NCBI GenBank assembly: GCA_001829155.1
Contig: MIAO01000144.1
Span: forward strand, 1-49,765
Origin: Spirochaetes bacterium GWB1_36_13
Lineage (GTDB): Bacteria > Spirochaetota > GWB1-36-13
Length of the DNA: 49,765 bases
Reading direction: 5' to 3'
Of the stretch, positions 1-12,184 are shown piece by piece. The notes beneath the pieces are model-generated. The model searched no databases. It saw nothing but the letters and a program-made list of their open reading frames with translations, and was not told the DNA's origin. Position 1 is the first letter of the stretch; every line of letters begins with the position of its first letter. Both the position numbers and the translations under genes were made by a program.

Positions 1-191
1 ATCATTTTTGGATCTGAAAAAGATTTCCTTGAATTTCTAGTAATAACTGTATATCTATACTTTGGATTAATTTTATTTTTTTTAAATGTAGATGAAATTA
101 AATCATGTAAGTATAAAATATCTTTTTTTTTCAAAGAGGTAGAGTTTATTAAGCTAATTTCCTCATTTGGAATATCAAATTCTTCAATCAA
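1..191 (-). CDS. Partial hypothetical protein; first cassette gene of the second (degenerate) integron-like platform
   Basis: TTG start at 191 preceded by AAGGAG; frame open to window edge (MIEEFDIPNEEISLINSTSLKKKDILYLHDL...); begins about 40 bp after GTTGGGT core at 234. Confidence 0.6.
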   Translation of the reverse strand, partial: MIEEFDIPNEEISLINSTSLKKKDILYLHDLISSTFKKNKINPKYRYTVITRNSRKSFSDPKM

Positions 192-225
192 ATTATTCTC
201 CTTTAAATCACATTTAACATGCATT

Positions 226-266
226 GCACCCAACTCCATATATACGACAAAACTTTCGTATATTCC
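226..266 (-). other. Putative attI-like site of second platform
   Basis: + strand gcacccAAC-tccat-atatacga-caaaactt-tcgtatat-tcc; same motif and same position (just 3' of an integrase stop) as 9700-9770; minus strand reads GTTGGGT (GTTRRRY). Confidence 0.7.
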
Positions 267-290
267 GGATACACTGGTAAAGTACGACAT

Positions 291-442
291 TTAATTATCC
301 AGCGGACTCCTTACATTTCTAATCGTCTGAGCGCTCACATGAGTATAAATCTCAGTTGTTTCACTCGATTTATGACCCAGTAATTCCTGAATCATCCTCA
401 AATCAGTTCACGCTTCTTTTTTATTTCCAATATTCTCTCCAC
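291..442 (-). pseudogene. Internally deleted integrase remnant
   Basis: GTG-ERILEIKK N-terminus nearly identical to 10834 start, fused out of frame to C-terminal [38 protein letters not shown] (cf. [39 protein letters not shown]); about 870 bp of the middle missing. Confidence 0.88.
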
Positions 443-525
443 AATTCAAAAATAAATATATAAAAAAATTTATAATAAGCAAAAAAATATTGACTCAACC
501 CTGAAAGCAGGCTAGGCGGGAAAAT

Positions 526-669
526 TTCAGATAATGTTCCCGCGATATGTGATGCTCCTGAGGCTTAGAAGGGTGCAGTCTGAGGGTCGTGAGCAGAGCG
601 AACCCCCGAAGCAAACCCTGTCCCGTCAGGGCTTGCCGATGGAGTATCATATATCGTGTGTTATGTGAA
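526..669 (-). repeat. attC-like recombination site (distal; belongs to RNase cassette)
   Basis: + strand ttcagatAAT-gttcc-cgcgatatgtgatgctcc ... ggagtatcatatatcgtg-t-GTTatgtgaa; long imperfect palindrome immediately after the stop of the 631-aa ORF. Confidence 0.8.
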
Positions 670-673
670 GGAT

Positions 674-2569
674 TTAGTTTTTAATTACTTGCTGTGTAGT
701 CTTAAAGTTTAGTTTCGCAATTTTAGTTAACTCTCCTTCTCCATTTTTTTCTATAATAGATTTTGTAACTTTTATTACCGTTTCATTTGCTCCTTTTGGA
801 ATAGTAATTCCATATTTTATTCCCATAGCTTCGATAGATGTTAAAAACCCTTCTCTTGCTAAAATAGATGCAGCTGCTACTGCAATATCTCTTTCAGCTT
901 TGTGAATTTGCAGTAACTCTATTTTTTTCCCATTTTCCATTAATGCCTTATTTATATATTCTTCATTTCCAAATTGGTCTGCAATTGCAGCTGTACAATC
1001 ATTTTTTATTAATAAGTTTTCGATTGCTCGTGCATGCCCCCATGCTAATAATTCGTTCATATTTTTCATTTTGTCGTATAACTCATTGTATTTTTCTGGA
1101 TTTATTTTAATAACACTATATTTATCTTCTCCTACAAGTCTCCTGATTTCTGGAGCCATTTCTTTAATTTTGCTATCACTTATTGTTTTACTATCTTTAA
1201 CGCCCAATGATTTTAATTTCTCGTTTGTTTCTTTATCAACATATACTCCAGCAATTACAATTGCTCCTAAGTAGTCACCTTTTCCAGATTCGTCAGTTCC
1301 AATATGTGATTCTTTTGTAAAACTTAGAAATTTTTCTTCTTTTTCTTTATTGATTTGATTAGAGTCTTTTTCTACATTTTGCACTACTAATAAATCTTTT
1401 TCTTCACTTTTATATGTTTCATCTTTTTTTGTTTGACAAATATCTTCATCCGTTAACCCCGCTCTTATCAAAATATTGTAGGCATCTCTCATACAAGCTT
1501 TTATTTCACCAACTTTATCAAATGCTTCCTCAGGATTTTGAATACAAATTATTCTTCTATCTCCTAATGGGTCAGAATGCATTTCTTTACATCTACTTCC
1601 TTCCCAAATTGCTATCATTTTTTCTAGAACATATCCATATCGTCTTTCATCTGTAATATATTTTTTAAATTTTAGTTTTCTCAATGCATTTCCTACATCG
1701 GCAATTTCAGGATTTTTCTTGTAATCTTCAATAGTGAAAAAGTCTTTTTCTATCATTATTTTTATTATAAATCCTTCATATACTTTGGCAAACTGTGCAA
1801 CTAAAAAATTATATTCATCCAATTTTTCACTTACTTTCTTAATAATTTCTACTAACGCTAATCCTGTTGAATATGTCTTCTTATCATTTTCAAACAAGTA
1901 ATCCTCAAATCCCTCTGGAAAATTTTTAACTCTTTCGTTCATCTTCAATAACATTTCTGAGTTTTCTTTAATTTCTTTCTCAATTTTATTTTTTTCTTTT
2001 GCAGAAACATAAAAAAGTGCTCTTTCCATATCATCCAAAGGCTTATAAGCATTTATTATTTCAGCAACTTTATCTATTAAGTCAGAATAAATTCCTTGAA
2101 CCACTAAATTTCCACTTTTATACAATGTAACAACACAAGAAAAGTCATAATAAGTTATTTTATATATAAATTCCTGATGTTCATGTTTTTCCAACTTCTC
2201 AATTTGAAAAGTATTTTCTATTGATTCTTTAATTATTTTTTGAATTTCAGTGTCTTGAATTTTGATTGATGCACTAACAGGAATTCTATTTTCAACTCCA
2301 TCAGGTTTTATTACTTTTAACTCTAAATTACTACAAAATATATTTTCAAAATCTTGTGTAGCCTTTTCAATTATAATTTTAGAAGAATTCTTACCTTTAA
2401 AATATATTATGATTGAAGCAAATTCTTTGGAATGTTCTATATTCAATTTATATCCACAACCGTTATTTATTTCTTTTTCTTCTATCACTTTTGCCCCAAT
2501 CTGACTTATTTTCTCTTTGACTATCATTATAGAATCTTCTTTTTGTTTTACAAATTCAATGCTTTTCAT
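674..2569 (-). CDS. RNase LS (RnlA-like, TBP-like domains + HEPN) fused to C-terminal RNase HIII-type domain
   Basis: C-terminal IGTDESGKGDY...GVKDSK...DQF...AVAAASILAR (RNase HII/HIII); TLYKSGNLVVQG TBP-like motif; middle EYNFLVAQFAKVYEGFI and R-x4-H (RCKEMH) resembling RnlA HEPN; RBS GAGGGG. Confidence 0.72.
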   Translation of the reverse strand: MKSIEFVKQKEDSIMIVKEKISQIGAKVIEEKEINNGCGYKLNIEHSKEFASIIIYFKGKNSSKIIIEKATQDFENIFCSNLELKVIKPDGVENRIPVSASIKIQDTEIQKIIKESIENTFQIEKLEKHEHQEFIYKITYYDFSCVVTLYKSGNLVVQGIYSDLIDKVAEIINAYKPLDDMERALFYVSAKEKNKIEKEIKENSEMLLKMNERVKNFPEGFEDYLFENDKKTYSTGLALVEIIKKVSEKLDEYNFLVAQFAKVYEGFIIKIMIEKDFFTIEDYKKNPEIADVGNALRKLKFKKYITDERRYGYVLEKMIAIWEGSRCKEMHSDPLGDRRIICIQNPEEAFDKVGEIKACMRDAYNILIRAGLTDEDICQTKKDETYKSEEKDLLVVQNVEKDSNQINKEKEEKFLSFTKESHIGTDESGKGDYLGAIVIAGVYVDKETNEKLKSLGVKDSKTISDSKIKEMAPEIRRLVGEDKYSVIKINPEKYNELYDKMKNMNELLAWGHARAIENLLIKNDCTAAIADQFGNEEYINKALMENGKKIELLQIHKAERDIAVAAASILAREGFLTSIEAMGIKYGITIPKGANETVIKVTKSIIEKNGEGELTKIAKLNFKTTQQVIKN

Positions 2570-2640
2570 CGTTCCCCTCTCTTTATAAAACTATTTTTAT
2601 TTTATAATATTTAGAATATAATTTCTTCGTTTTGAATCTT

Positions 2641-2804
2641 TCACCTAACATTTGCGACTATAAGACCGAGTAGGGTTTGCCATGAGCAAACCCGTAAGCG
2701 AGGCAAGGGAACGAAGTAACCGCAGCGTTCGGCTGAAAGCCGAATGTCGGGCGAAGCCCTGGAGGGCAGCTTGACTGCCCAGAGTGATAGTCGCTGTTGT
2801 GTGA
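2641..2804 (-). repeat. attC-like recombination site (belongs to membrane-protein cassette)
   Basis: + strand tcacctAAC-attt-gcgactat ... atagtcgc-t-GTTgtgtga; minus strand ends GTTAGGT; internal GC-rich sub-hairpins. Confidence 0.82.
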
Positions 2805-2815
2805 TGTAACTATTT

Positions 2816-3223
2816 TCACAGTGCGGCATTTTTCATTGGTTCTCTGTTAAAAAGATTATAAAAATAAAAACATAATACACCGATGAGAAAGGTAAAAAGG
2901 AAATTAACGATTGTGATTATTTCTATCTGTCCATTTATAATTTTAGTGAGAGAAAGCAAGATAGTTATTAACATGTGAAAAGCTCCGGATTTCACATATA
3001 CATTATTGAATGGGATTTTACTTTGTATTTTCAAAAATAATATGGAGAGGAGACCACCAATGGCTCCAACACCAACGATCAGAAAGAGCATAAAAATAAT
3101 CATTGATTTGATTTTGTCATTTTCAAATTTTATCGATCCAAGTATAATTAGATATAAAAAATTGAATATATATAAAATCATATATGCAATCATTCCGCCT
3201 AAAAATCCTTTTTTTAAATTCAT
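2816..3223 (-). CDS. Small multi-pass membrane protein, unknown function (cassette gene)
   Basis: 135 aa, about four hydrophobic segments, GGAG RBS, fills the space between two attC-like sites. Confidence 0.75.
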   Translation of the reverse strand: MNLKKGFLGGMIAYMILYIFNFLYLIILGSIKFENDKIKSMIIFMLFLIVGVGAIGGLLSILFLKIQSKIPFNNVYVKSGAFHMLITILLSLTKIINGQIEIITIVNFLFTFLIGVLCFYFYNLFNREPMKNAAL

Positions 3224-3269
3224 GTAAACTCCATGTTTTTATTTGCCGCACATTACGAAAATAGTTATT

Positions 3270-3453
3270 TCACACAATGTTCTGCGGCGAGATGCGGTAC
3301 CGAAAAGGGTAGTAGCCGCCACATACAATATTACTAACCTTAAAAATCTAAACCAAAAACTGGTGAAATAAAAGCCACATTTTTGGTATCGAGGGAAATC
3401 CGTAATTTTAGGATTTTTGATGATTTTCCCGTCATTGCGCCGCTGTTATATGA
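3270..3453 (-). repeat. attC-like recombination site (belongs to GNAT cassette)
   Basis: + strand tcacacAAT-gttct-gcggcg...ggtaccgaaaa ... ttttggtatc...cgccgc-t-GTTatatga. Confidence 0.75.
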
Positions 3454-3476
3454 TGGCGCGCATTCATTTAAAACAA

Positions 3477-4361
3477 CTATTTTAAAACAGAACAATAAAA
3501 AGGGTGGTAAAAATCTTCTTCATACCCCAATTTATTTGCAACTCTTCTTGAGCCAATATTATCAAAATTTGTTCCCCAAATTGGATTAAATCCATTTTCA
3601 AGACAATACATAATCATTGCTGCTGCTGGATATACTCCTAAACCTTGACCTCTAAAGTTTTGATCCGTTTCAATTCCAACATCAATCATATCATTTGAAA
3701 TAAATGAAGAAAATGATGTACTAACAACCATTTCGTCTTTTAGAAGGCAATAACCAATTCCTTTGCTTAAGAATTTTTCCATAGTGTCCCATGAAAAACT
3801 AGGTATGATTTTACCAGTGATTTTTATATAATTTTTCTCATCAATTCTTTTTAGTTTAAAACCTTTTGGAATCTGGTTAAAAAAGTCTTGTCGGTTGATA
3901 AATACAGATTTATTGAACTTGAATCGTACTCGTTCAAAGGCAAGAACATTTTCAGATAAAACTTTTTTTAGCGTTATTATTTTTTCATCTTGATCCAGGT
4001 TAGAGTCATTGCAAATCACTGAATAATCTTTTAGGCGATCTCCTAGCAAATTATTTAGTTTTTCATTCCAGGTATCAGGATATGTCACCAAGCGGATTTG
4101 TTTGGGTTTAGTATTAGCTTCTTTTAACATTATTTCAATCAGCTGATGATTAAATAAATCGTTGTTTTGATTTCCGCATAAAAGGGAGAATCCTGAAACA
4201 AAGTGAGAAATAAATGCCGTGTTAGGATGTTGAATATTGTCAACAAAAATAGAACCATTTTGTATTTGATCGATTACTGCTTGTGCAAACACTTTGTCAA
4301 AATTGACATCTTCAACAAGCGGCAAAACAAGATGATATTGGCTAGGTTCAATTTTAATCAT
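3477..4361 (-). CDS. GNAT family N-acetyltransferase (cassette gene)
   Basis: DVGIETDQNFRGQGLG acetyl-CoA motif and NIGSRRVANKLGY; start moved to MIKIEPSQ (4361, GGAG upstream) because the longer ORF begins inside the attC-like site. Confidence 0.85.
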   Translation of the reverse strand: MIKIEPSQYHLVLPLVEDVNFDKVFAQAVIDQIQNGSIFVDNIQHPNTAFISHFVSGFSLLCGNQNNDLFNHQLIEIMLKEANTKPKQIRLVTYPDTWNEKLNNLLGDRLKDYSVICNDSNLDQDEKIITLKKVLSENVLAFERVRFKFNKSVFINRQDFFNQIPKGFKLKRIDEKNYIKITGKIIPSFSWDTMEKFLSKGIGYCLLKDEMVVSTSFSSFISNDMIDVGIETDQNFRGQGLGVYPAAAMIMYCLENGFNPIWGTNFDNIGSRRVANKLGYEEDFYHPFYCSVLK

Positions 4362-4401
4362 AAGAAGATTACTCCATACTAAATATTTTTTTTGCGCGCT
4401 T

Positions 4402-4556
4402 TCATATAATGTTCCGTGTGTTGCCGAAGTTGCCAGCACCACAAACTTTATTTCTAAATTTACAAAATAATCCAAGCAAAACTAAATCTCCCAAATTCTA
4501 ACAAGATGCTGGCAATTTGGGTGAGCGCAGCGAACCGGCAACACACTGTTATCTGA
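4402..4556 (-). repeat. attC-like recombination site (belongs to R-M cassette)
   Basis: + strand tcatatAAT-gttcc-gtgtgttgccg-aagttgccagca ... tgctggcaattt...cggcaacacac-t-GTTatctga; arms near-identical to 7708-7872. Confidence 0.85.
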
Positions 4557-4597
4557 TGTGCCGTGCTAAATACCAATCAGTACGCCATGGATGGCGT

Positions 4598-5674
4598 TTA
4601 TTTATTTTTGTTTTGGTTTTCTAAATATTCTAAATATTTAATTATTTTTTTATATTCGATTAGTTGCATATATTCTTCCATGTAGTGATAATCTGGATTT
4701 TCATTCTCATTAATAGGTAATATTATACTCTCTTTTTCCAATCTTGTAGAACTTCTTTTATAGCCAAAATTGTATTTACCCCTTACTTTATCAGCAACAG
4801 TAGTTATAAAAGTTCCACTATATCTATTAATATTTGGACTGTATCCTAAGGTCATATCCGAAGTTGCAATAAAATCCTCAGCTTTATAAACTGAGTATCC
4901 CATAGAACCTTCTCCATTTCTTATAAATGCAATACAATTACCTTTCTGAATTAACTTATTATCTTTATTTACTTGGCACAAAACCCCATTATTTTGATTA
5001 GTTGCACCTAAATAATTAATTCCTTTTTTAGATTTGTTTAAATGATTCAAACCTTTAGATTTACCTGGTACTAACCTTTCAAAGAGTTTACCTATTTTAA
5101 ATTCTTTCCATTCTTTTTGTGATAAAAATTTCAGATTATTTGAATAATTAATACCTTCTATTTTAGACAATATATACTTCTTGTATTTTTCAATCAGAAG
5201 TTGCTCCTTATCTTGCATAAAAGATTCCATAAATTCATAGTCGGGTTTACCATTTAGATTTACAGGTAAAAGTATTTTTTCTTTTTTGATTCGATTATCG
5301 TTGATTTCACGGTTATAGCTATATTTTTCATCTAAACGCGAAACTATATTCGCAATAAATAGATAAATATATTTATTAAAATTAGGATTTTCCAATTTAG
5401 TAACATGATCACTAGCAATAAACCTATAAGGTTGGTAAAAACAAGCTCCGACACTTCCACTATTCGCAATAGATAAACAATTAGAAAAAATTCTCACATC
5501 AGATGTATTGCTTATAAAGTTATCAACTCCATTATTCAAGGCAGTTGAAGAAATATAAGGCATTTTTCCTAAAAAATGGTCATTAGTTTTAAGTCGCTTC
5601 CCTCTTTGGATATTAGGAAAAACCTCATTAATGAAAAATTCTTGCCATTTTAAACCGTTCAATCTGTTTTTCAT
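4598..5674 (-). CDS. Restriction specificity subunit (BcgIB-like, two TRDs)
   Basis: Two repeated W(Q/K)EF.I...I.LP.N....PDY..ME..M units; coupled to upstream methylase/nuclease. Confidence 0.85.
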   Translation of the reverse strand: MKNRLNGLKWQEFFINEVFPNIQRGKRLKTNDHFLGKMPYISSTALNNGVDNFISNTSDVRIFSNCLSIANSGSVGACFYQPYRFIASDHVTKLENPNFNKYIYLFIANIVSRLDEKYSYNREINDNRIKKEKILLPVNLNGKPDYEFMESFMQDKEQLLIEKYKKYILSKIEGINYSNNLKFLSQKEWKEFKIGKLFERLVPGKSKGLNHLNKSKKGINYLGATNQNNGVLCQVNKDNKLIQKGNCIAFIRNGEGSMGYSVYKAEDFIATSDMTLGYSPNINRYSGTFITTVADKVRGKYNFGYKRSSTRLEKESIILPINENENPDYHYMEEYMQLIEYKKIIKYLEYLENQNKNK

Positions 5675-5676
5675 AA

Positions 5677-7569
5677 TTATTCGTCCAACCCAAACAAATA
5701 ACCTTTGCCATGAGTTACCATATTAAACTCAAAAGTCAGGTAATCCGCCATAGTGTTTTCAAAATCCTCATCACATGGGATTTCATCATTAAAATAATAA
5801 AAAGAATGCAACCATTCATCTTCTGGCTCTATAATTGTTTTAACCATAAACCTACTTTCAGCAGGTGCATCATGTCTCCAACAAGATATTAAGCGAGCTT
5901 TTTTTTCTTTTGCTCTTTCTGTTTCTATAAGACCAATATGTTTATTAACAACAAATCCATCATCTTCAAAATTAATAAATTTACAATACTTTTCTTTTGG
6001 GTGGGGCTTGTGTGCTGTAAAAATAGCTATACATGTATTTGTACCTATCCCATAAAAAGTATTTTTATTAAGAGTTATAACACCTTCTAATGAGTGTTTT
6101 TCTAATATATTTTTTTTCACAAGTTTATCTTCATTGGTTTTCCCAACCATAGTTGATTGAGGAACAATCACTGCACATTTTGCGCCATCTGATAAAGAAT
6201 CTAATAAATGCTTGACAAAAGATATTTCAGTCAAATGCGCATTTTCTTTTACTTTTCCTTGAGAATAAGGAGGATTCATTAAACCAATTGTAAACTTATT
6301 TTTTTTAAATTCTTCAGCAGACCTATTTAAAAAATCATCACAAACAAGGTTACTTTTTCCATCTCCTCTTAAAATCATATTTGTAGTAGCAATTGAAAAC
6401 ATATCTTCTCTTACTTCTATACCAAATATTTGATCTTTTTTTATTTTATTTCTGTCTTTTGGTTCGGCTTTTTTTAACATATAGTGCATAGCTGCAATTA
6501 AAAAACTTCCTGTTCCACAACATGGGTCAAAAACAATATCAGAAGGTTGAATATCCAATAATTCACAAAACAATTCAGTAATATGTTTTGGAGTAAGTAC
6601 CACACCTAAAGTTTGACCATCGCCACCACTATACCTAATAAATTCACCATAAAATCGACCTAAAACATCTTCTGGAGTATTTGCAATGACAGATTTTAAA
6701 ATGTTATTTTTTAAGTATTCTGTAAAATATTTTAAAGGAGTCTTTTCTAATCGAGTATCTATGCGATTTAACAAAGTCCTGTCTTTTATTGTGGTGAATT
6801 GATTTAAAATTTTATCTTTTTTTGTTTCAGGTTGAACTTCTACCCTAGTCATATATGTGGAAAGTGCGTCAAATATTTTTTGCCCGTCTGTTTTTAAAGA
6901 ATCACCAATCAAGGAATCAATAGTAAATGAATTATCTTGTAACGCTAATAAAATAGCGGAAACAATAAGAGGTTTTTCTGAATCACCTAATTGGCCATAA
7001 TTTCTGAGATATTCATTAAGTTCTTTAGATTTGCTTAGAATATCTTCCAGTTCAAGAGCTTCAGCAGGTGTTTCTTTTAAAACTTGTTCTTTGTAATATT
7101 TTTCTATGTTTTCTTCAGAAAAATTTTCAAAGTTTTCAACATTTTGAAGAATCTTATACCCATTTTCATCAACATAAATAGGTTTAATTTTATGGTGTTT
7201 TTCATTTCCAGAACAACCAAAAGCAAATATTTTTTTAAAATTAGTTTTTGTAAAAATTTCTTGTGCATAATGGAGAGCTCCATTTTCAGCATAATCAGAA
7301 ATAGATTTATTATCCATTAATAATGTAAAGCCATCATCATTATCATAAATAGCTTGTTTATTTAAATCAGCTTTATCCTCAATAACAATAATAAAATCTT
7401 TTGATTTACCAACAAATTCAGGAAATCCACTTTTACCAGTTCCTTTTTTTGAAGCTGTTTTAAGGGCATCTTGTATTTCTTTTATATCGCTCCCATTTGG
7501 TGTAAATTTTATTTTTGCATTATTTAATAAATTTCCTATAAAAAAATCAGTCTTTCTTTCATTCGCCAT
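5677..7569 (-). CDS. Type IIB restriction-modification enzyme alpha subunit (BcgIA-like nuclease + N6-adenine methyltransferase)
   Basis: N-terminal ALKTASK.G.G..G.PEF...IEDK nuclease motif; DPCCGTGSFL (motif I), NPPY (motif IV); start at MANERKT with GGGG RBS (ORF track starts 7587). Confidence 0.85.
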   Translation of the reverse strand: MANERKTDFFIGNLLNNAKIKFTPNGSDIKEIQDALKTASKKGTGKSGFPEFVGKSKDFIIVIEDKADLNKQAIYDNDDGFTLLMDNKSISDYAENGALHYAQEIFTKTNFKKIFAFGCSGNEKHHKIKPIYVDENGYKILQNVENFENFSEENIEKYYKEQVLKETPAEALELEDILSKSKELNEYLRNYGQLGDSEKPLIVSAILLALQDNSFTIDSLIGDSLKTDGQKIFDALSTYMTRVEVQPETKKDKILNQFTTIKDRTLLNRIDTRLEKTPLKYFTEYLKNNILKSVIANTPEDVLGRFYGEFIRYSGGDGQTLGVVLTPKHITELFCELLDIQPSDIVFDPCCGTGSFLIAAMHYMLKKAEPKDRNKIKKDQIFGIEVREDMFSIATTNMILRGDGKSNLVCDDFLNRSAEEFKKNKFTIGLMNPPYSQGKVKENAHLTEISFVKHLLDSLSDGAKCAVIVPQSTMVGKTNEDKLVKKNILEKHSLEGVITLNKNTFYGIGTNTCIAIFTAHKPHPKEKYCKFINFEDDGFVVNKHIGLIETERAKEKKARLISCWRHDAPAESRFMVKTIIEPEDEWLHSFYYFNDEIPCDEDFENTMADYLTFEFNMVTHGKGYLFGLDE

Positions 7570-7707
7570 CTTATTCCCCAATTCCATAGTTTATGAATAA
7601 TTAGTAAGTCATTAAAATTTATAGTTTTTCTTCCCAAAAGTCATCTTTTATCTTTCTTAGCCTGCACGGATGCAGGCTCTTAATATACAAAACTCTGGCA
7701 CGGCATT

Positions 7708-7872
7708 TCAGATAACGTTCCGTGTGTTGCCGAAGTTGCCAGCCTAACATATAACACACTTTTAAATTTATTCAACAAATCACCCCAAAACCAACACCTG
7801 AAATATCAATATTGCTGGCAATTTGGGAGAGGGCGGCTCGCCCGCCCGAACCGGCAACACACTGTTATACGA
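7708..7872 (-). repeat. attC-like recombination site (belongs to TIR/cyclase cassette)
   Basis: + strand tcagatAAC-gttcc-gtgtgttgccg-aagttgccagc ... gctggcaattt...cggcaacacac-t-GTTatacga. Confidence 0.85.
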
Positions 7873-7915
7873 AGTTTTTAGCCTAAAAATAAAAAAACAT
7901 AATTAGGAATAATAA

Positions 7916-9091
7916 TTATTTTAATTTATATTCTAAAATATTTTGTTGTTTCCCGAACATAAAATCATTTAAATATTTGTAATAAAAAGAATATAATGGA
8001 GGCATATCATTAGTTTTCCATTCAACCTCAATATATGGTGTATCATCAGGAAGTATTCTAGGTAAATAATTTGAAATGTGAATAAACCCCTTGCCTTGAA
8101 AACCTTTATCAACTAAAGAAGCACCAAAAGGTATAAAGTGACTATATTCATAAATATTCAAGGTTATATTTGACTTCTGATTTAATGATTCATACCATTT
8201 TTTAATACTATCAATAGATAATGATTTTTCTTTTAAATTTAATTTTCCTACTTTAACCCCAAAAAATTCTTCTATTTGTTTTGATATTTCATCTTTGGCA
8301 TAATAAATATTTATTTTAATTTTTCTATGTTCATTAATATCAATTTGATTCAATATACTTGGTAAAGAAGGATGATAGATTCCAATAAATTCTAATTCTG
8401 CACTATGTTTTACTCGTTCAAGAAATTTTTCATCTAAATTCTTTTTTTTGGGGTAATCATTTGAATAAATATTAGTAAAATATTTTGTTAAAATCTTCGT
8501 ATTTTTACCATAATCTTTATTTTTATTACTTAAAATGATATTATAAACATTGTGTTCAAAACTATGTTTATCAATAACGGTATCTTCATCTATTAAAGTA
8601 AAAGACCAATCATCATTAATTTTAATTTTTCCACCTAAAGAGTCATTTTTTTTTCTTAAAAATTTATTATAGAAAGTTTTACTAACAATAATACCACCAT
8701 CATCAGCACCTGTAAGTATTCTTGCTGCATCATTTATTGTATTACCTATAATATTATTTTTTCGATTAATATCTTTAAGAACATTTACATCACCTACGTG
8801 AATTGCACACCTTATATCACAATCATTACTAATTGTCCAATCTATTATGCCAACAACTAATTCAAAAGATTTTAAATATGAAGAAGTCTTTATATTCTCA
8901 ATACCAGCAATAATCCCATCTCCCGTAGGAATTAAAATACAATCATTGTCAAGTATTTCATCATATAATAAATGATGAATCTCTTTCTGAAATCTTTTAA
9001 ATAAATCAATTTGTATTGGTTCATTATTTTTTGAATAACCAACTAAATCTAGATAAACAATTATATAAGATTTTGGCATGATTTTCTCCAA
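7916..9091 (-). CDS. Class III nucleotide cyclase domain fused to uncharacterised C-terminal alpha/beta domain
   Basis: YLDLVGYS, PTGDG, IRCAIHVGDV, GNTINDAARI cyclase motifs; C-terminal ~190 aa resembles DUF5919/PLD-like folds (low confidence). Confidence 0.8.
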   Translation of the reverse strand: MEKIMPKSYIIVYLDLVGYSKNNEPIQIDLFKRFQKEIHHLLYDEILDNDCILIPTGDGIIAGIENIKTSSYLKSFELVVGIIDWTISNDCDIRCAIHVGDVNVLKDINRKNNIIGNTINDAARILTGADDGGIIVSKTFYNKFLRKKNDSLGGKIKINDDWSFTLIDEDTVIDKHSFEHNVYNIILSNKNKDYGKNTKILTKYFTNIYSNDYPKKKNLDEKFLERVKHSAELEFIGIYHPSLPSILNQIDINEHRKIKINIYYAKDEISKQIEEFFGVKVGKLNLKEKSLSIDSIKKWYESLNQKSNITLNIYEYSHFIPFGASLVDKGFQGKGFIHISNYLPRILPDDTPYIEVEWKTNDMPPLYSFYYKYLNDFMFGKQQNILEYKLK

Positions 9092-9096
9092 GATAA

Positions 9097-9660
9097 TTAA
9101 TGTGTTATATTACAATTCTTACATTTACTATTATACCTCATCATATCCTGTGGATTAACAATAAATTGGTTTCTTGACGATCTTGCTTTATAAGCATCAT
9201 CAATCCAATCTCCTAATTGTTGAGGCGAATTTGGATATATATAATATCTTGCATAACAATCATTTAATTCTTTATTCCAATTTGATTCAAATCGAGGGGG
9301 TAAATATGCGCTATTTCCTTGGTTAGGTAATATTATCCCAATTAAACCATTGGGTATATAATTTATACCTTGTCTTAATGAACTTTTAATCTCCCAATCA
9401 ACATATCTTCGACTATGTGTACAACTTCCAATTAAGACAATAGTAACAGTAGTATCTTGTAAATAATCATTTCTTATTTTATTCATAACATAATCAGTAT
9501 TACTGCTATCAATAAAATCATCATTATCATTAGCACCTAATACAAAAGGTGTAAAAACGTTTTCTTGATTTGCAAAATAATCAATAAAACTATCAACTTC
9601 AACATTATCTCCTTTATAAAAAGAAATGAATACCTTTCTTTTAATACCATTATATGACAT
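9097..9660 (-). CDS. TIR domain protein (ThsB/MTH538-like, DUF1863)
   Basis: RKVFISF, IR..YL.DTTVTIVLIG, RRYVDWEI with catalytic Glu, PNGLIGI; GGAGG RBS. Confidence 0.88.
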   Translation of the reverse strand: MSYNGIKRKVFISFYKGDNVEVDSFIDYFANQENVFTPFVLGANDNDDFIDSSNTDYVMNKIRNDYLQDTTVTIVLIGSCTHSRRYVDWEIKSSLRQGINYIPNGLIGIILPNQGNSAYLPPRFESNWNKELNDCYARYYIYPNSPQQLGDWIDDAYKARSSRNQFIVNPQDMMRYNSKCKNCNITH

Positions 9661-9699
9661 TTTATTCCTCCAATTTTATTTTACATGGCTAAAAATTTT

Positions 9700-9770
9700 G
9701 TATAACTCAATATATACGAACTTCGCATATTACTCTTAATTCAATGGAATATGCGAAGTTCGTATATCCC
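9700..9770 (-). other. Putative attI-like site with perfect 20-bp inverted repeat
   Basis: gtatAAC (GTTATAC on minus) then tcaat and atatacgaacttcgcatatt (9712-9731) / aatatgcgaagttcgtatat (9748-9767); lies between integrase stop and first cassette. Confidence 0.72.
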
Positions 9771-9808
9771 TGTTTAATGGGTGTTTTTTAAGAACTTTTA
9801 TCTGTTTA

Positions 9809-10834
9809 TTATAAATCATCTATGGGGCTTCTTATATTTTTTAGTATTTTTGTGCTGACATGGGTATAAATCTCAGTTGTTTTGCTGGATTCATGACCCA
9901 ATAGTTCCTGTATTATTCTTAAATCAGTTCCGTTTTCCAGTAAATGCGTGGCAAAGCTATGTCTGAGGGAATGAATTCCTGCTTCTTTCTTTAAGCCGGA
10001 TTCTTTTATAGCATTTTCAAAAACTTTCTGTAATGAACGGGATGTAATTTTCTTTTCATTCCTCTGACCTTCAAAAAGCCAGAATTTAGGGTGATACGCA
10101 TGAAGGTATTCGTTTATATCTCTTGATACTTTATCAGACAAAAGAGTAGTTCTGTCCTTCTTCCCTTTTGCCCCTTTTATGATAAGGATTTTTCTCTCAA
10201 AATCTATATCCTGTATTCTTAAACTCACTGTTTCACTCACACGCAGACCCGCTGAATAAGTGATGGAAAGCATGAGTTTATGCTTGAGATTTTTAACGGA
10301 ATCAATCAGCCTTTTGACCTCTTCTTTACTCAGTACGACAGGTAGTTTTTTTTCTTTTTTAGCCCGTTTGATCTGATAAATAAAATTCTTGCCGAGAATA
10401 CTGCCATAATAAAACCTCAGAGCATTCATGGCACAGTTAAGAGTTGAAGCCGTTGCTTCTTTTTTATCGGCTAGGTAATCCAGATAATTTTTAATATCTG
10501 TTTGATTAATAAAATCGGGGGTTTTACCTGTAAAGGTCAATAGTTCTTTGTTATAAAATGTATATGATTTACTTGTTCTTAAACTATAGCCACGGATACG
10601 GGTTTCTTGAGCAATGGAATCTTTTAGTGGGACTAATTCGGATCCGAAAGAGACTTTAAAATGTTTTTCAAGGTAGTCTCTATTAGAGAGATTATCAGGA
10701 ATAATCCATATTTTTTTGTCAGAAACCCATTTTCTGCCGGATATTTTACGGATGAGTTCAATCAAAGAGGGATTGTATTCAATACTAACTTCAAGCATTC
10801 CGTTATTCTTTTTTATTTCCAATATTCTCTCCAC
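9809..10834 (-). CDS. Tyrosine recombinase, integron-integrase-like, lacking IntI-specific insertion, with extra N-terminal domain
   Basis: [40 protein letters not shown] (R-K-H-R-H-Y intact); SAM-like region RGYSLRTSKSY...ASTLNCAMNALRF; KLPVVLSKEEV. Confidence 0.92.
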   Translation of the reverse strand: MERILEIKKNNGMLEVSIEYNPSLIELIRKISGRKWVSDKKIWIIPDNLSNRDYLEKHFKVSFGSELVPLKDSIAQETRIRGYSLRTSKSYTFYNKELLTFTGKTPDFINQTDIKNYLDYLADKKEATASTLNCAMNALRFYYGSILGKNFIYQIKRAKKEKKLPVVLSKEEVKRLIDSVKNLKHKLMLSITYSAGLRVSETVSLRIQDIDFERKILIIKGAKGKKDRTTLLSDKVSRDINEYLHAYHPKFWLFEGQRNEKKITSRSLQKVFENAIKESGLKKEAGIHSLRHSFATHLLENGTDLRIIQELLGHESSKTTEIYTHVSTKILKNIRSPIDDL

Positions 10835-10848
10835 ATTTCCAAATTAAA

Positions 10849-10877
10849 AATATAACCAAAATCGATAGAGCAATCAA
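10849..10877 (-). promoter_or_regulatory. Possible sigma70-type integrase promoter
   Basis: TTGATT-17 nt-TATATT on minus strand, 14 nt before GTG; remnant copy has TTGCTT-16 nt-TATATT at the equivalent position. Confidence 0.4.
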
Positions 10878-10963
10878 AAAAATATTGAGTTCAGGTTTTT
10901 CTTGTTAGATTTTTCCCATAGGATCAAAGCTTAAGTCTTAAAGGACAAGACAGGATTTATTTA

Positions 10964-11636
10964 GTCGACCCTGAAAAACTCATTTTTCAAGTTCAAAAAG
11001 CTCAAAGATTTTTTGCCCACAAACCCCCATCCCCTTATCTCCCAGAGGAAGACAAGGGGAGTTTTAGGAATTACAGTATTGTTTTTCAATAATAATTTAT
11101 TTACATTACCTAACGGTAAAAAAGGAAATTAATTTCAAAATTCCTTCTATTCAGGTTTCTCATTTTATTTTCATTTTAGCATTCATCTGCCCCTCCGTTC
11201 GGCGTCCTGCCGAAAGTCGGGAAATCTTTTTTCTGTTTGGAATTCTCGTATGCAAATTCTCCTAATTTGCATTAAAACCATTTATTATCAAGAATTATTT
11301 TAAGACTTTTATCTCTTTAACCCTGCACGAGGCAGGGTTTCCTCCGTCCGACTTGATTTCACGGATGAAATCACGGAGGACTCCCCCTTGTCCTTAAAGA
11401 TTTAAGGATAAGGGGTTAGGGGTTTGGATTTGAAACCCGCTGGAATAGTCTTAAAATAAGCTGATTCGAGTCCAATCAGAATAAATCTTCAAGACAGTTC
11501 AAAAAAGAATGTGCTGAAAAAACCTCGATTTTTACCAGATTATTGACAAAAGAATAAAAAAACTTGCAAAATTTTTGACTCTTTTTTATAAATTTTTCTT
11601 TACTGTAAAAGATTTCTTGACTTTTTCAGGGTCGAC
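10964..11636. mobile_element. Non-autonomous MITE-like element (673 bp)
   Basis: Terminal inverted repeats gtcgaccctgaaaaa(c/g)tca (15 bp perfect, 18/19), flanked by direct repeat tattta (10958-10963, 11637-11642); no long ORF; nested internal inverted repeats. Confidence 0.8.
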
Positions 11637-12184
11637 TATTTAAATAACTGGTTGAAAGTGTCTTTTGAAAACTGGTGGTTGATAATCTCGGTTTCTTCTG
11701 CCGGATCTTCCGGTTCCTGAGTGAAAAAATAATGAAAACTGATAAACTCTTCCTCTTTCTGAAATCCGAATTTCTGGTAGAGTTTTTGAGCGTTTGAATT
11801 CTCCAGTGCGGTGGAAAGGGTGAGGCCTTTTGCATTTTGATTCCGGGCAAATTCCTTCGCGCGGGTTAAGAGGGCAAAGGCGATTCCTTCTTTTCGAAAC
11901 GGTTCATCGACAAAAAGGTCGTTTAAAATCAGAAGCGGTTTCATCGATACGGAGGAAAAAGTGGGGTAGAGCTGGGTAAACCCGAAGACTATTTTAGGAT
12001 CATTAAAATCATGCGCAAAAAACAAATAAGACTCTTGATTTTGAAACCTCTCCATCAAAAAGGCTCCGGCTCCTGAGAGAAAACTTTTTTGCCCGTAAAA
12101 AATCCTGTATTGGTCAAAAAGCGGAGCAATCAGAGAAATATCTGTCAATTCAGCTTCTTTAATCTTAAATTGAAAATTTTTCAT
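11636..12184 (-). CDS. GNAT family N-acetyltransferase
   Basis: LFDQYRIFY, FTQLYPTFSSVSM, LNDLFV.EPFRKEGIA, NSNAQKLYQKFGF. Confidence 0.88.
   Translation of the reverse strand: MKNFQFKIKEAELTDISLIAPLFDQYRIFYGQKSFLSGAGAFLMERFQNQESYLFFAHDFNDPKIVFGFTQLYPTFSSVSMKPLLILNDLFVDEPFRKEGIAFALLTRAKEFARNQNAKGLTLSTALENSNAQKLYQKFGFQKEEEFISFHYFFTQEPEDPAEETEIINHQFSKDTFNQLFK

Follow-up and report, generated by a model that had tools for sequence, protein, structure and literature searches.

A tyrosine recombinase gene and five gene units downstream of it, each followed by a long palindrome, occupy one end of contig MIAO01000144.1 of Spirochaetes bacterium GWB1_36_13, and we consider it quite probable that together they form an integron-type cassette platform run by a non-canonical integrase that lacks the insert of IntI enzymes and uses a distinct class of attC-like sites. 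Hereafter, the window is this whole contig of 49,765 nt (C144), one of 151 contigs of a 3.04-Mb, 36% GC, 93%-complete genome; the sequencing runs that hold it are groundwater metagenomes. G000 denotes the window's own genome, C-numbers denote its contigs, and L-numbers denote the fetched loci of relatives or of canonical IntI. In the mechanism that we propose, the gene that leads the array is transcribed in the direction of the cassettes and encodes a dedicated recombinase. This enzyme would catalyse recombination between the attI-like site F and the conserved G|TT (the bar marks the crossover) in the 3' (R') end of each attC-like palindrome, thereby inserting, excising and reshuffling circular cassettes. 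We infer that the adjacent insert-less recombinase would carry out the catalysis, because no other neighbour is conserved, the active-site motifs of the enzyme are intact and the array genomes searched yielded no canonical IntI. That the sites act as folded single strands is a proposition to which we give roughly even odds; such a substrate is suggested by the covariation of the stems, a one-sided 4-5-nt bulge and the HARP-like domain of the enzyme. The recombinase, the site beside it and the cassettes are as follows.

9809 to 10834, minus strand: tyrosine recombinase of 341 aa, an open reading frame (ORF)
10595 to 10834, minus strand: N-terminal HARP-like domain of the recombinase, about 60 aa, from Pfam, alignment, AlphaFold2 (AF2) and fold search
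9695 to 9779, minus strand: site F, attI-like, 85 nt, an inverted repeat with homologous sites in relatives
7716 to 9705, minus strand: cassette 1, with a TIR gene, a 391-aa ORF and site E; crossover at 7716
4410 to 7715, minus strand: cassette 2, with a type IIG restriction endonuclease-methyltransferase gene, a specificity (S) subunit gene and site D; crossover at 4410
3278 to 4409, minus strand: cassette 3, with a GNAT gene and site C; crossover at 3278
2649 to 3277, minus strand: cassette 4, with a membrane protein gene and site B
535 to 2648, minus strand: cassette 5, with an RNase HIII fusion gene and site A; crossover at 535

The recombinase and its relation to IntI

The recombinase is encoded by an intact 341-aa ORF at 10834-9809 on the minus strand, upstream of and co-oriented with all five cassettes. 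It reads KKDRTTLLSDKVSRDINEYLHAYHPKFWLFEG, with only HAYHPKF between EYL and WLF, and its Pfam domain content is PF13495 plus PF00589. It passes the XerA model NF040815 ('site-specific tyrosine recombinase/integron integrase') with 234.6 bits against a cut-off of 220, and passes neither TIGR02249 (integron integrase; 226.8 bits against a cut-off of 265) nor NF011946 (163 bits against a cut-off of 435). The TIGR02249 match falls into two pieces, profile positions 3-178 and 233-315, and leaves the 54 positions 179-232 empty. P. abyssi XerA (4a8e) aligns to the recombinase without a gap (3.1e-43), while V. cholerae IntIA (VchIntIA, which is IntI4; 2a3v) scores about as well (1.2e-42) but in two stretches, with 62 IntIA residues (180-241) in the insert region opposite 20 query residues (243-262). 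KDR and LRHSF are separated by 70 residues in the window's recombinase and by 69-72 residues in all 80 relatives described below, none of which has the insert. The motifs AGLRVSE, HSLRHSFATH, LLGH and EIYTH are intact and aligned to those of XerA, and we take them to be the catalytic Arg, His-x-x-Arg, His and Tyr, respectively. The C-terminal tail, IRSPID, aligns with the LSPLS tail of IntIA/IntI4. By these sequence comparisons, the recombinase is IntI/XerA-like but without the approximately 42-residue insert of IntI, as the original prediction had proposed on the basis of the window alone. The further expectation that such proteins would be called XerD-like is borne out by database names: at least 7,855 proteins in a large protein collection match the recombinase at E≤1e-20, and they are named XerD, XerC or 'site-specific tyrosine recombinase/integron integrase'. 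Two further Xer paralogues are encoded in the window's genome.

Residues 1-70 of the recombinase form a separate N-terminal domain, which had gone unnoticed in the original prediction. We observed a weak match of this domain to Pfam HARP (PF07443) with an E-value of 0.003 and 17.5 bits, under the 25-bit gathering cut-off. Across the aligned N-termini of 27 relatives, W36 and W43 are nearly invariant, and six of these N-termini reach E≤0.01 against HARP, with 2e-5 as the best value. AF2 predicts a beta-beta-alpha-beta-beta-alpha domain (pLDDT 77, with a core of 85-92), for which the top PDB fold returned by Foldseek is the 'substrate recognition domain' of SMARCAL1 HARP (4o66; E 0.047, prob 0.94) and the second-ranked fold is the N-terminal half of archaeal XPB. 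Given that no E-value for the window's domain falls below 0.001, we use the label HARP-like as a lead and not as proven membership. HARP-type domains bind forked or distorted, branched or single-strand/double-strand-junction DNA, and the HARP-like domain might do the job that is done by the I2 insert in IntI. Canonical IntIs of the same phylum (L101-L125) are mostly 405-447 aa in length and have a long N-terminal extension (e.g. MFIEIRPYEK...), which may also be a HARP-like domain.

No match over the TIGR02249 cut-off was found in G000, and the five other strong-array genomes that were searched, among them a complete Desulfitobacterium chromosome, likewise gave no canonical IntI over that cut-off. 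In a sample of the window's phylum, canonical IntI over the cut-off is present in 29 of 301 genomes, and many others have only a two-piece, insert-less match. The relationship between the two kinds of enzyme was estimated from a quick IQ-TREE tree of 57 rows. Besides the query and IntI1, these rows are 16 canonical IntIs of the phylum, seven Xer paralogues and 32 of the 80 relatives, the remaining 48 having been dropped by a length filter of 320-400 aa or because only every second one was taken. In this tree, the insert-less family and canonical IntI stand apart from the Xer paralogues (SH-aLRT 100), and canonical IntI forms one clade (100) next to the query's subgroup (92, not starred). Forcing the insert-less family into one clade costs 3.5 log-likelihood units (p-AU 0.4), a value with which canonical IntI may be either sister to the insert-less family or nested in it. 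Because the enzyme appears to be closest to canonical IntI and yet has no insert, we see an even chance that insert-less integrases with a HARP-like domain are a second integron branch, maybe the older one, spread through Bacteroidota, Bacillota, Nitrospirota, Spirochaetota, Atribacterota, candidate phyla, and DPANN and other Archaea.

Palindromic sites and the arrays behind related recombinases

We observed a palindrome after each of the five co-oriented gene units downstream of the recombinase, in agreement with the original prediction; all five lie on the minus strand and are 144-186 nt in length. Two covariance models were used to describe such sites. The first, R1, was built from window sites E and D only, and the second, R2, was built from 13 sites that R1 found in eight other loci or genomes, none of them from the window.

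7705 to 7871, minus strand: site E, 167 nt; R2 covariance model 73.6 bits
4399 to 4555, minus strand: site D, 157 nt; R2 72.2 bits
3267 to 3452, minus strand: site C, 186 nt; R2 22.4 bits
2638 to 2803, minus strand: site B, 166 nt; placed by eye and MAFFT alignment, missed by R1 and R2
524 to 667, minus strand: site A, 144 nt; R2 37.2 bits

In gene sense, the sites follow the pattern TCAnAYAAC-A-[stem]...[stem]-GGAAC-(G/A)TTRTnTGAAA, in which the 5-nt R arms pair (ATAAC with GTTAT), the inner stem has 6-15 pairs and a spacer of 4-5 nt lies on the 3' side only. Site F, located between the integrase stop codon and cassette 1, is a perfect 20-bp inverted repeat with a 16-nt loop and ends ATTGAG|TTATAC, which would place its crossover between 9706 and 9705. 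Sites D and E have in common a 38-nt stretch with 95% identity (repeat D5). The window palindromes are intergenic, GC-richer than their surroundings and fold at -49 to -64 kcal/mol (values without a shuffle control), and no T-run follows them. A 14-nt motif at the 3' end occurs 10 times in the 3.04-Mb genome, with four of these occurrences in the array, and R2 run over the 49.8-kb window recovers E, D, A and C and nothing else at E≤5. Since the 3'-end motif is concentrated in the array and a model built from other genomes finds these four sites, the window palindromes go beyond what would be expected by chance. Over the 3.04 Mb of G000, R2 gave six matches in or outside the array, in a search whose first-look filter scored 150 of 437 candidates. 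An Rfam scan of positions 1-12000 at E≤1 found no matching family, and gave one chance match of a miRNA family on site F (26 bits, E 0.24). Covariance models were preferred because palindrome finders (seed extension, blastn self-hits and inverted-repeat search) were too noisy or too strict in AT-rich DNA; a strict scan for AAC/GTT stems recovered about half of the sites, and einverted-like dynamic-programming scores equalled those of shuffles. A MAFFT alignment of the six window sites aligned the ends only and was not used for a model.

Solo attC-like sites are also present elsewhere in G000 (R2 52 to 25 bits), at C11:32734-32834(-), C138:5641-5761(+), C120:7953-8030(+), C75:1535-1648(-) and C109:1645-1719(-). 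The C75 site lies approximately 1 kb downstream of an integrase pseudogene (C75:2662-2946, with four TGA), and a further integrase fragment lies on C31.

Relatives of the recombinase were collected by a scan of one genome per species, in which 569 were confirmed among 600 candidate stretches and the best 80 loci were kept. The bacterial sources of these 80 relatives are Spirochaetota, Bacteroidota (many of them Flavobacterium), Bacillota (including complete Desulfitobacterium and Paenibacillus chromosomes), Nitrospirota, Atribacterota, Chlorobiaceae, Ignavibacteriota and candidate phyla. Relatives are likewise found in archaeal metagenome-assembled genomes of Altiarchaeota, Micrarchaeota, Undinarchaeota (Undinarchaeales) and Methanosarcinales, and there are arrays in the archaeal loci, too. 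This wide spread across phyla of arrays behind insert-less integrases was not seen by the original prediction.

With default filters, R1 gave 19 matches at E≤1.1, with scores of up to 55 bits, on the integrase strand downstream of the gene; these lie in archaeal, Atribacteria, Bacteroidota, Bacillota and Nitrospirota loci. R2, applied to both strands of the window and 82 loci (958,905 nt), gave 113 matches at E≤5. The 80 loci of relatives account for 108 of these, of which 107 are downstream of and co-oriented with the integrase gene, one is upstream (L020) and none is antisense, and more sequence was searched upstream (532,757 nt) than downstream (281,029 nt) in these loci. The search for similar palindrome arrays behind homologs, which had been suggested along with the original prediction, found at least one R2 match in 25 of the 29 loci with at least 3 kb of downstream sequence, and at least two in 21 of them. 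For the 23 such loci that did not contribute to training, the corresponding counts are 19 and 16. The intervals between sites have a median length of 736 nt, and the longest ORF is co-oriented in 60 of 70. In the Desulfitobacterium array (L036), ten cassette ORFs match five unrelated families or none, and defence/accessory genes are present.

The secondary structure of the sites was assessed using 51 R2 matches from 24 sources outside the R2 training set. Paired cells amount to 92.3%; none of 500 shuffles came as high (58.5% paired), and pairing is 28.6-40.8% when the partners are shifted by 1-3 columns. There are 352 compensatory cells, in which both sides have changed. The AAC/GTT pairs are kept in 50, 51 and 49 of the 51 sites, and all 11 pairs of the L stem covary.

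In an integron, the first bases of a cassette belong to the R' arm of that cassette's own site. For 13 arrays, the nucleotides at positions 10-24 past each G|TT, which lie beyond the nine conserved positions, were set against the flank 5' of the AAC of every site in the same array. Own pairs, in which the site is the next one in the array, agreed at 6.46 of 15 positions (n=59); for the 341 non-own pairs the figure was 3.69 of 15, as expected at random (Mann-Whitney p 1.4e-14). The four own pairs of the window reach 10, 8, 12 and 6 of 15, against a mean of 3.4 and a maximum of 7 for its non-own pairs. The start of cassette 4 matches the 5' flank of site B at 12 of 15 positions, and in cassette 1 the complementarity spans 33 nt (9674-9706 with 7864-7896; inverted repeat I3). 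The own-site signal is weak in Flavobacterium arrays (3-6 of 15).

Comparisons between relatives locate the crossover. Two Flavobacterium species (L048 and L065) have 100% identity over at least 400 nt, a stretch that takes in the last part of the integrase gene and the attI-like site as far as ...ACAAG; past the common TTA, identity drops to 42% and 25%. In the pair L074 and L081, identity is 59% over the last 300 nt of the gene plus attI, and then 95% over 158 nt from TTATGGG. We place the crossover at G|TT because identity breaks (L048/L065) or begins (L074/L081) exactly there, and by these alignments different cassettes stand behind an identical attI and the same cassette behind different attIs. 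The coordinates 9705/7716, proposed earlier as the junction of a cassette circle, agree with the G|TT crossover positions derived here. In most relatives, the attI-like site lies directly after the stop codon and ends GAACGAG|TTAG or ACAAG|TTAG, with two short palindromic boxes around a CCAAATTTGG-like centre. Where the spacer meets R', AAC|GTT forms a 6-bp palindrome. The R2 matches in downstream, co-oriented position (107 of 108), the complementarity of cassettes to their own sites and the G|TT junctions uphold the proposal that the palindromes delimit cassettes tied to this integrase family.

Read-level evidence was taken from assembled Logan contigs of the runs, including the probable source run. 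Contigs of the latter break at 484, 3276-3305, 4411-4440 and 7714, breaks that fall at the R' ends of four sites (A, C, D and E). Among the 80 relatives, the contig stops within 600 nt past the integrase in 30 cases and begins within 600 nt ahead of it in 11. These contig breaks fit variable neighbours at cassette borders, and repeats alone can also break contigs. Contigs diverge from the window at 468 (X1 and X3, with differing sequences) and at 9657 (X3), which hints at other contexts only. Four joints (1995-10962, 2249-11082, 6262-11423 and 6823-11580) were rejected; they run into a high-copy element resembling a miniature inverted-repeat transposable element (MITE), described below, and look like repeat artefacts.

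R2 gave no match beside 25 canonical IntI genes with 1.5-kb flanks, and none, with filters off, in four canonical IntI loci (9-15 kb) or in a class 1 integron (best 15.9 bits, E 0.37). The window-type sites would thus be a class distinct from canonical attC, a distinction that rests on the negative R2 result and assumes that attC sites are present in those stretches. The site geometry that the original prediction had called different proved to be so in part: the sites are longer, have a conserved one-sided spacer (GGAAC/AAAAC) and leave R2 blank beside canonical IntI, whereas the AAC/GTT R box, the covarying L stem and the variable centre are attC-like.

Three loci of relatives deserve separate description. 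The sole R2 match upstream of an integrase, L020:9422-9510, precedes an N-terminally short Atribacteria integrase of 265 aa (L020:10001-10798), whose gene looks as if it were itself inside an array. In the closest relative, L007:7249-8416 holds two tandem cassettes without ORFs, with intervals of 404 nt, each followed by a near-identical 180-nt site. The locus L147, on a Chryseobacterium plasmid (NZ_CP041688.1, 11971-22104), contains a family member and four R2 sites; an IS110 transposase gene and, on the opposite strand, one for a group II intron reverse transcriptase break up this array. This intron recalls those group II introns that, in the account given in PMC3001079, favour attC sites.

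Cassette contents, array ends and neighbouring elements

The genes carried by the five cassettes are listed below with their best assignments.

9660 to 9097, minus strand: cassette 1, ThsB-like TIR protein (PF08937 6.6e-19; ThsB 1.5e-12)
9091 to 7916, minus strand: cassette 1, 391-aa protein with a faint nucleotide-cyclase likeness (PycC 1e-3)
7587 to 5677, minus strand: cassette 2, type IIG restriction-modification enzyme (PDLC03602 8.5e-179, full length)
5674 to 4598, minus strand: cassette 2, specificity subunit (Specificity_II 2e-42)
ORF end at 3477, minus strand: cassette 3, GNAT acetyltransferase (PF12746 9.6e-41)
3223 to 2816, minus strand: cassette 4, predicted membrane protein of 135 aa, no family
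2569 to 674, minus strand: cassette 5, 631-aa protein with RNase HIII (TIGR00716 5.3e-64) at residues 404-624

The two genes of cassette 2 make up a complete type IIG restriction-modification system. The first approximately 400 residues of the 631-aa RNase HIII fusion match no family in Pfam, NCBIfam or PADLOC. By these assignments, the five cassettes of the window carry unrelated accessory genes, mostly of anti-phage defence type, and chromosomal integrons are reported to carry such accessory and defence genes (10.1101/2024.07.02.601686, in the part cited). A diverged second allele of parts of the type IIG gene is present in the source metagenome at similar depth, with variant contigs at 6391-6534, 7108-7153 and 7489-7514.

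Beyond site A, the array ends in remnants of a second integrase module.

293 to 468, minus strand: decayed second integrase copy (repeats D1, 76%, and D2, 89%; 68% identity to aa 300-340)
230 to 292, minus strand: site Z, a remnant resembling F (attI-like), recognised by eye from its likeness to F, with no model hit

In the decayed copy, the start/promoter region (414-468) is fused to the last approximately 40 codons (293-409), with an internal deletion and one TGA stop. Site Z follows it and reads ATATACGA..TCGTATAT and then GGAG|TTGGG; the contig ends 230 nt beyond it. A decayed integrase and an F-like site at the distal end of the array would reflect either tandem modules or duplication of the array. 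At the opposite end, a non-coding element of approximately 690 nt (10955-11645) lies between the integrase promoter region and an upstream GNAT gene. It is bounded by 28-nt inverted repeats (89% complementary; listed as inverted repeat I2), has a depth of 700-1090x compared with approximately 12x in its flanks (metagenome contigs, bins 10851-11718), and looks like a high-copy MITE-like mobile element. In integrons, a Pc promoter drives cassettes that have no promoter of their own. A promoter scan here returned 17 promoter-like sites, one of them at 9939-9912 inside the 3' end of the integrase gene, compared with 22.1 expected from shuffles, counts that speak neither for nor against a Pc promoter.

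Interpretation and comparison with known systems

Several observations count against a cassette platform run by the insert-less recombinase. The established view is that the IntI insert is needed for attC recombination. The recombinase passes the XerA cut-off (NF040815), and since this is the NCBIfam cut-off for XerA, a role in chromosome resolution is conceivable. R2 missed window sites B and F, and it gave no match in four of the 29 loci with at least 3 kb downstream (L026, L051, L057 and L064). The site models are not independent of the finding, because R1 was seeded from the window and R2 from R1 matches; the covariation alignment was fitted to the model, which inflates the pairing percentages, and the slid controls carry the same bias. 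No circle or deletion junction was seen in the assembled contigs of the runs, and contigs cannot show absence. Two joints, 4551-9694 and 4551-9703, were not counted, as their short side is 28-30 letters (<31) and their positions differ from the predicted crossovers. The likeness to HARP is weak (under the Pfam cut-off and with a Foldseek E-value of 0.047), and the tree is a quick search without archaeal XerA.

The alternative that survives best accepts the same cassette system and attributes it to classical Xer action on double-stranded core sites; the palindromy would then reflect paired binding sites, and without I2 there would be no single-strand pathway. We regard it as a real, if somewhat doubtful, possibility. 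The insert region is Xer-like and aligns gap-free to XerA (4a8e), the attI-like site has two short palindromic boxes resembling protein-binding repeats, AAC|GTT is palindromic in itself, and the role of I2 lies in single-strand recombination as described in the cited part of PMC7790495. However, the 11-pair L stem varies in sequence yet pairs, which is hard to square with sequence-specific duplex binding. The one-sided spacer of 4-5 nt is fixed in position, the HARP-like domain suggests recognition of structure, and the complementarity of the R stem reaches 15-33 nt in some cassettes, all of which argue against action on duplex sites.

The arrays could also be orphan attC clusters (CALINs) left behind by a canonical IntI or served by one in trans, with an unrelated Xer/XerA homologue as their neighbour. 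The score of 234.6 bits against the NF040815 cut-off of 220, the 29 of 301 genomes of the phylum with canonical IntI and the abundance of CALINs described in PMC4889954, as far as the cited text goes, would be in keeping with this explanation. It is nonetheless very unlikely: all but one of the 108 R2 matches are downstream of and co-oriented with the insert-less gene, a conserved attI-like site abuts the integrase stop codon across phyla, canonical IntI was found neither in G000 nor in the other five array genomes, and R2 is blank beside four canonical IntI loci of the phylum and the class 1 integron. Two other Xer paralogues in the genome are, moreover, available for dimer resolution.

That the palindromes are dispersed MITE-like or repetitive extragenic palindromic (REP) repeats, or transcription terminators between genes, is highly improbable. 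Their intergenic position, higher GC content and strong folding (-49 to -64 kcal/mol) are what such elements would show, and there are a few solo copies elsewhere (C11, C138, C120, C75 and C109), but with six model matches in 3.04 Mb and four of the 10 motif occurrences in the array they are not dispersed, no T-run follows them, and complementarity to their own cassettes and comparative G|TT junctions would be unexpected. An ordinary integron whose IntI insert is present but misaligned is scarcely credible, for although the TIGR02249 score reaches 226.8 bits and the IRSPID tail resembles that of IntI, the gap appears in three independent alignments and IntI1 needs 975 nt to span 277 query residues.

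Reviews and standard detection software define integron integrases by an extra domain, the I2 helix of approximately 35 residues near patch III, that is held to be essential for cassette recombination. The comparative evidence supports the view that the array would work like an integron, yet it fails the defining integrase feature of the family, and it would thus be a variant of integrons for which we found no prior description. Our literature search returned no description of cassette arrays run by an insert-less integrase and none of a HARP domain in a tyrosine recombinase, with subscription journals and supplements mostly uncovered, so that a prior description of such arrays is possible. 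In the portions cited here, Cury et al. 2016 (PMC4889954) list 50 tyrosine recombinases without the insert profile near attC sites and judge that they 'are not IntI', Smyshlyaev et al. 2021 (PMC8138268) state that the insertion 'is not fully conserved' in an integron-like subgroup, and according to the IntegronFinder 2 preprint (10.1101/2022.02.28.482270) integrons are almost missing from Firmicutes and Bacteroidetes, with a single complete one in Firmicutes, another in Bacteroidetes proper, and few CALINs.

The significance of a platform run by insert-less integrases lies in the presence of cassette arrays with comparative integron hallmarks behind such enzymes in Bacteroidota, Bacillota and Archaea. 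If this reading is true, integrons would not be rare outside Proteobacteria, and many 'CALINs' and arrays unseen by current tools would have their own integrase adjoining. The I2 insert would be no prerequisite for recombining attC-type sites, and the HARP-like domain may read DNA structure. Were activity to be confirmed, the reach of cassette gene capture, including that of anti-phage defence genes, would be wider, detection tools would need a second integrase profile and a second site model, and the family would offer a natural test case for the evolution of single-strand site recognition in tyrosine recombinases.

Among known systems, XerA, XerC and XerD share with the window's enzyme the domains PF13495 and PF00589, a Xer-like insert region and a passing score for NF040815. 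Dimer resolvases act at a single dif site, and their genes stand apart from cassette arrays. The window's enzyme differs from them in having a HARP-like domain and an attI-like site and array behind its gene (arrays follow 25 of the 29 family genes with 3 kb or more of downstream sequence), and it differs from XerC and XerD also in that it branches with IntI, apart from the bacterial Xer paralogues. The pdif modules of Acinetobacter plasmids are gene modules bounded by 28-bp duplex XerC/D sites and served by host Xer proteins. As in the window, discrete gene modules lie between recombination sites of the Xer family, whereas the sites described here are structured palindromes of 75-200 nt with a dedicated adjacent recombinase. 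The attC sites of integrons have the architecture R''-L''-variable-L'-R', with RYYYAAC/GTTRRRY and a crossover at G|TT. Window-type sites have the same architecture, and many of the relatives' sites fit RYYYAAC/GTTRRRY.

Archaeal integrons, in the account cited from PMC9668308, have an attI site immediately downstream of the integrase gene, semi-conserved across phyla, and the canonical insertion point, as do the arrays described here. In the same account (Ghaly et al. 2022), archaeal arrays are mostly reported as CALINs, and archaeal IntIs, which were selected by the IntegronFinder insert profile, are stated to have the additional domain. The archaeal relatives found here differ in being without the insert; the two sets are compared by description, and some overlap with the reported archaeal CALINs is possible.

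The Treponema-type inverted-integrase integrons, in which the integrase is co-oriented with the cassettes (PMC9668308, as cited), have an IntI with the insert, whereas the window's enzyme lacks it and falls under the IntI cut-off. They differ also in their sites, those of the window being longer (144-186 nt) and having a one-sided spacer of the GGAAC type, and R2 is blank at four canonical loci. In other respects the two systems are alike. Both have a tyrosine recombinase, in the window probably one of the IntI lineage, heading a co-oriented array, with attI beside the gene, and both have cassettes of one or two ORFs with imperfect AAC...GTT palindromes, a G|TT crossover and accessory or defence content. 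The canonical IntIs of spirochaetes, at 405-447 aa, have a long N-terminal extension as well.

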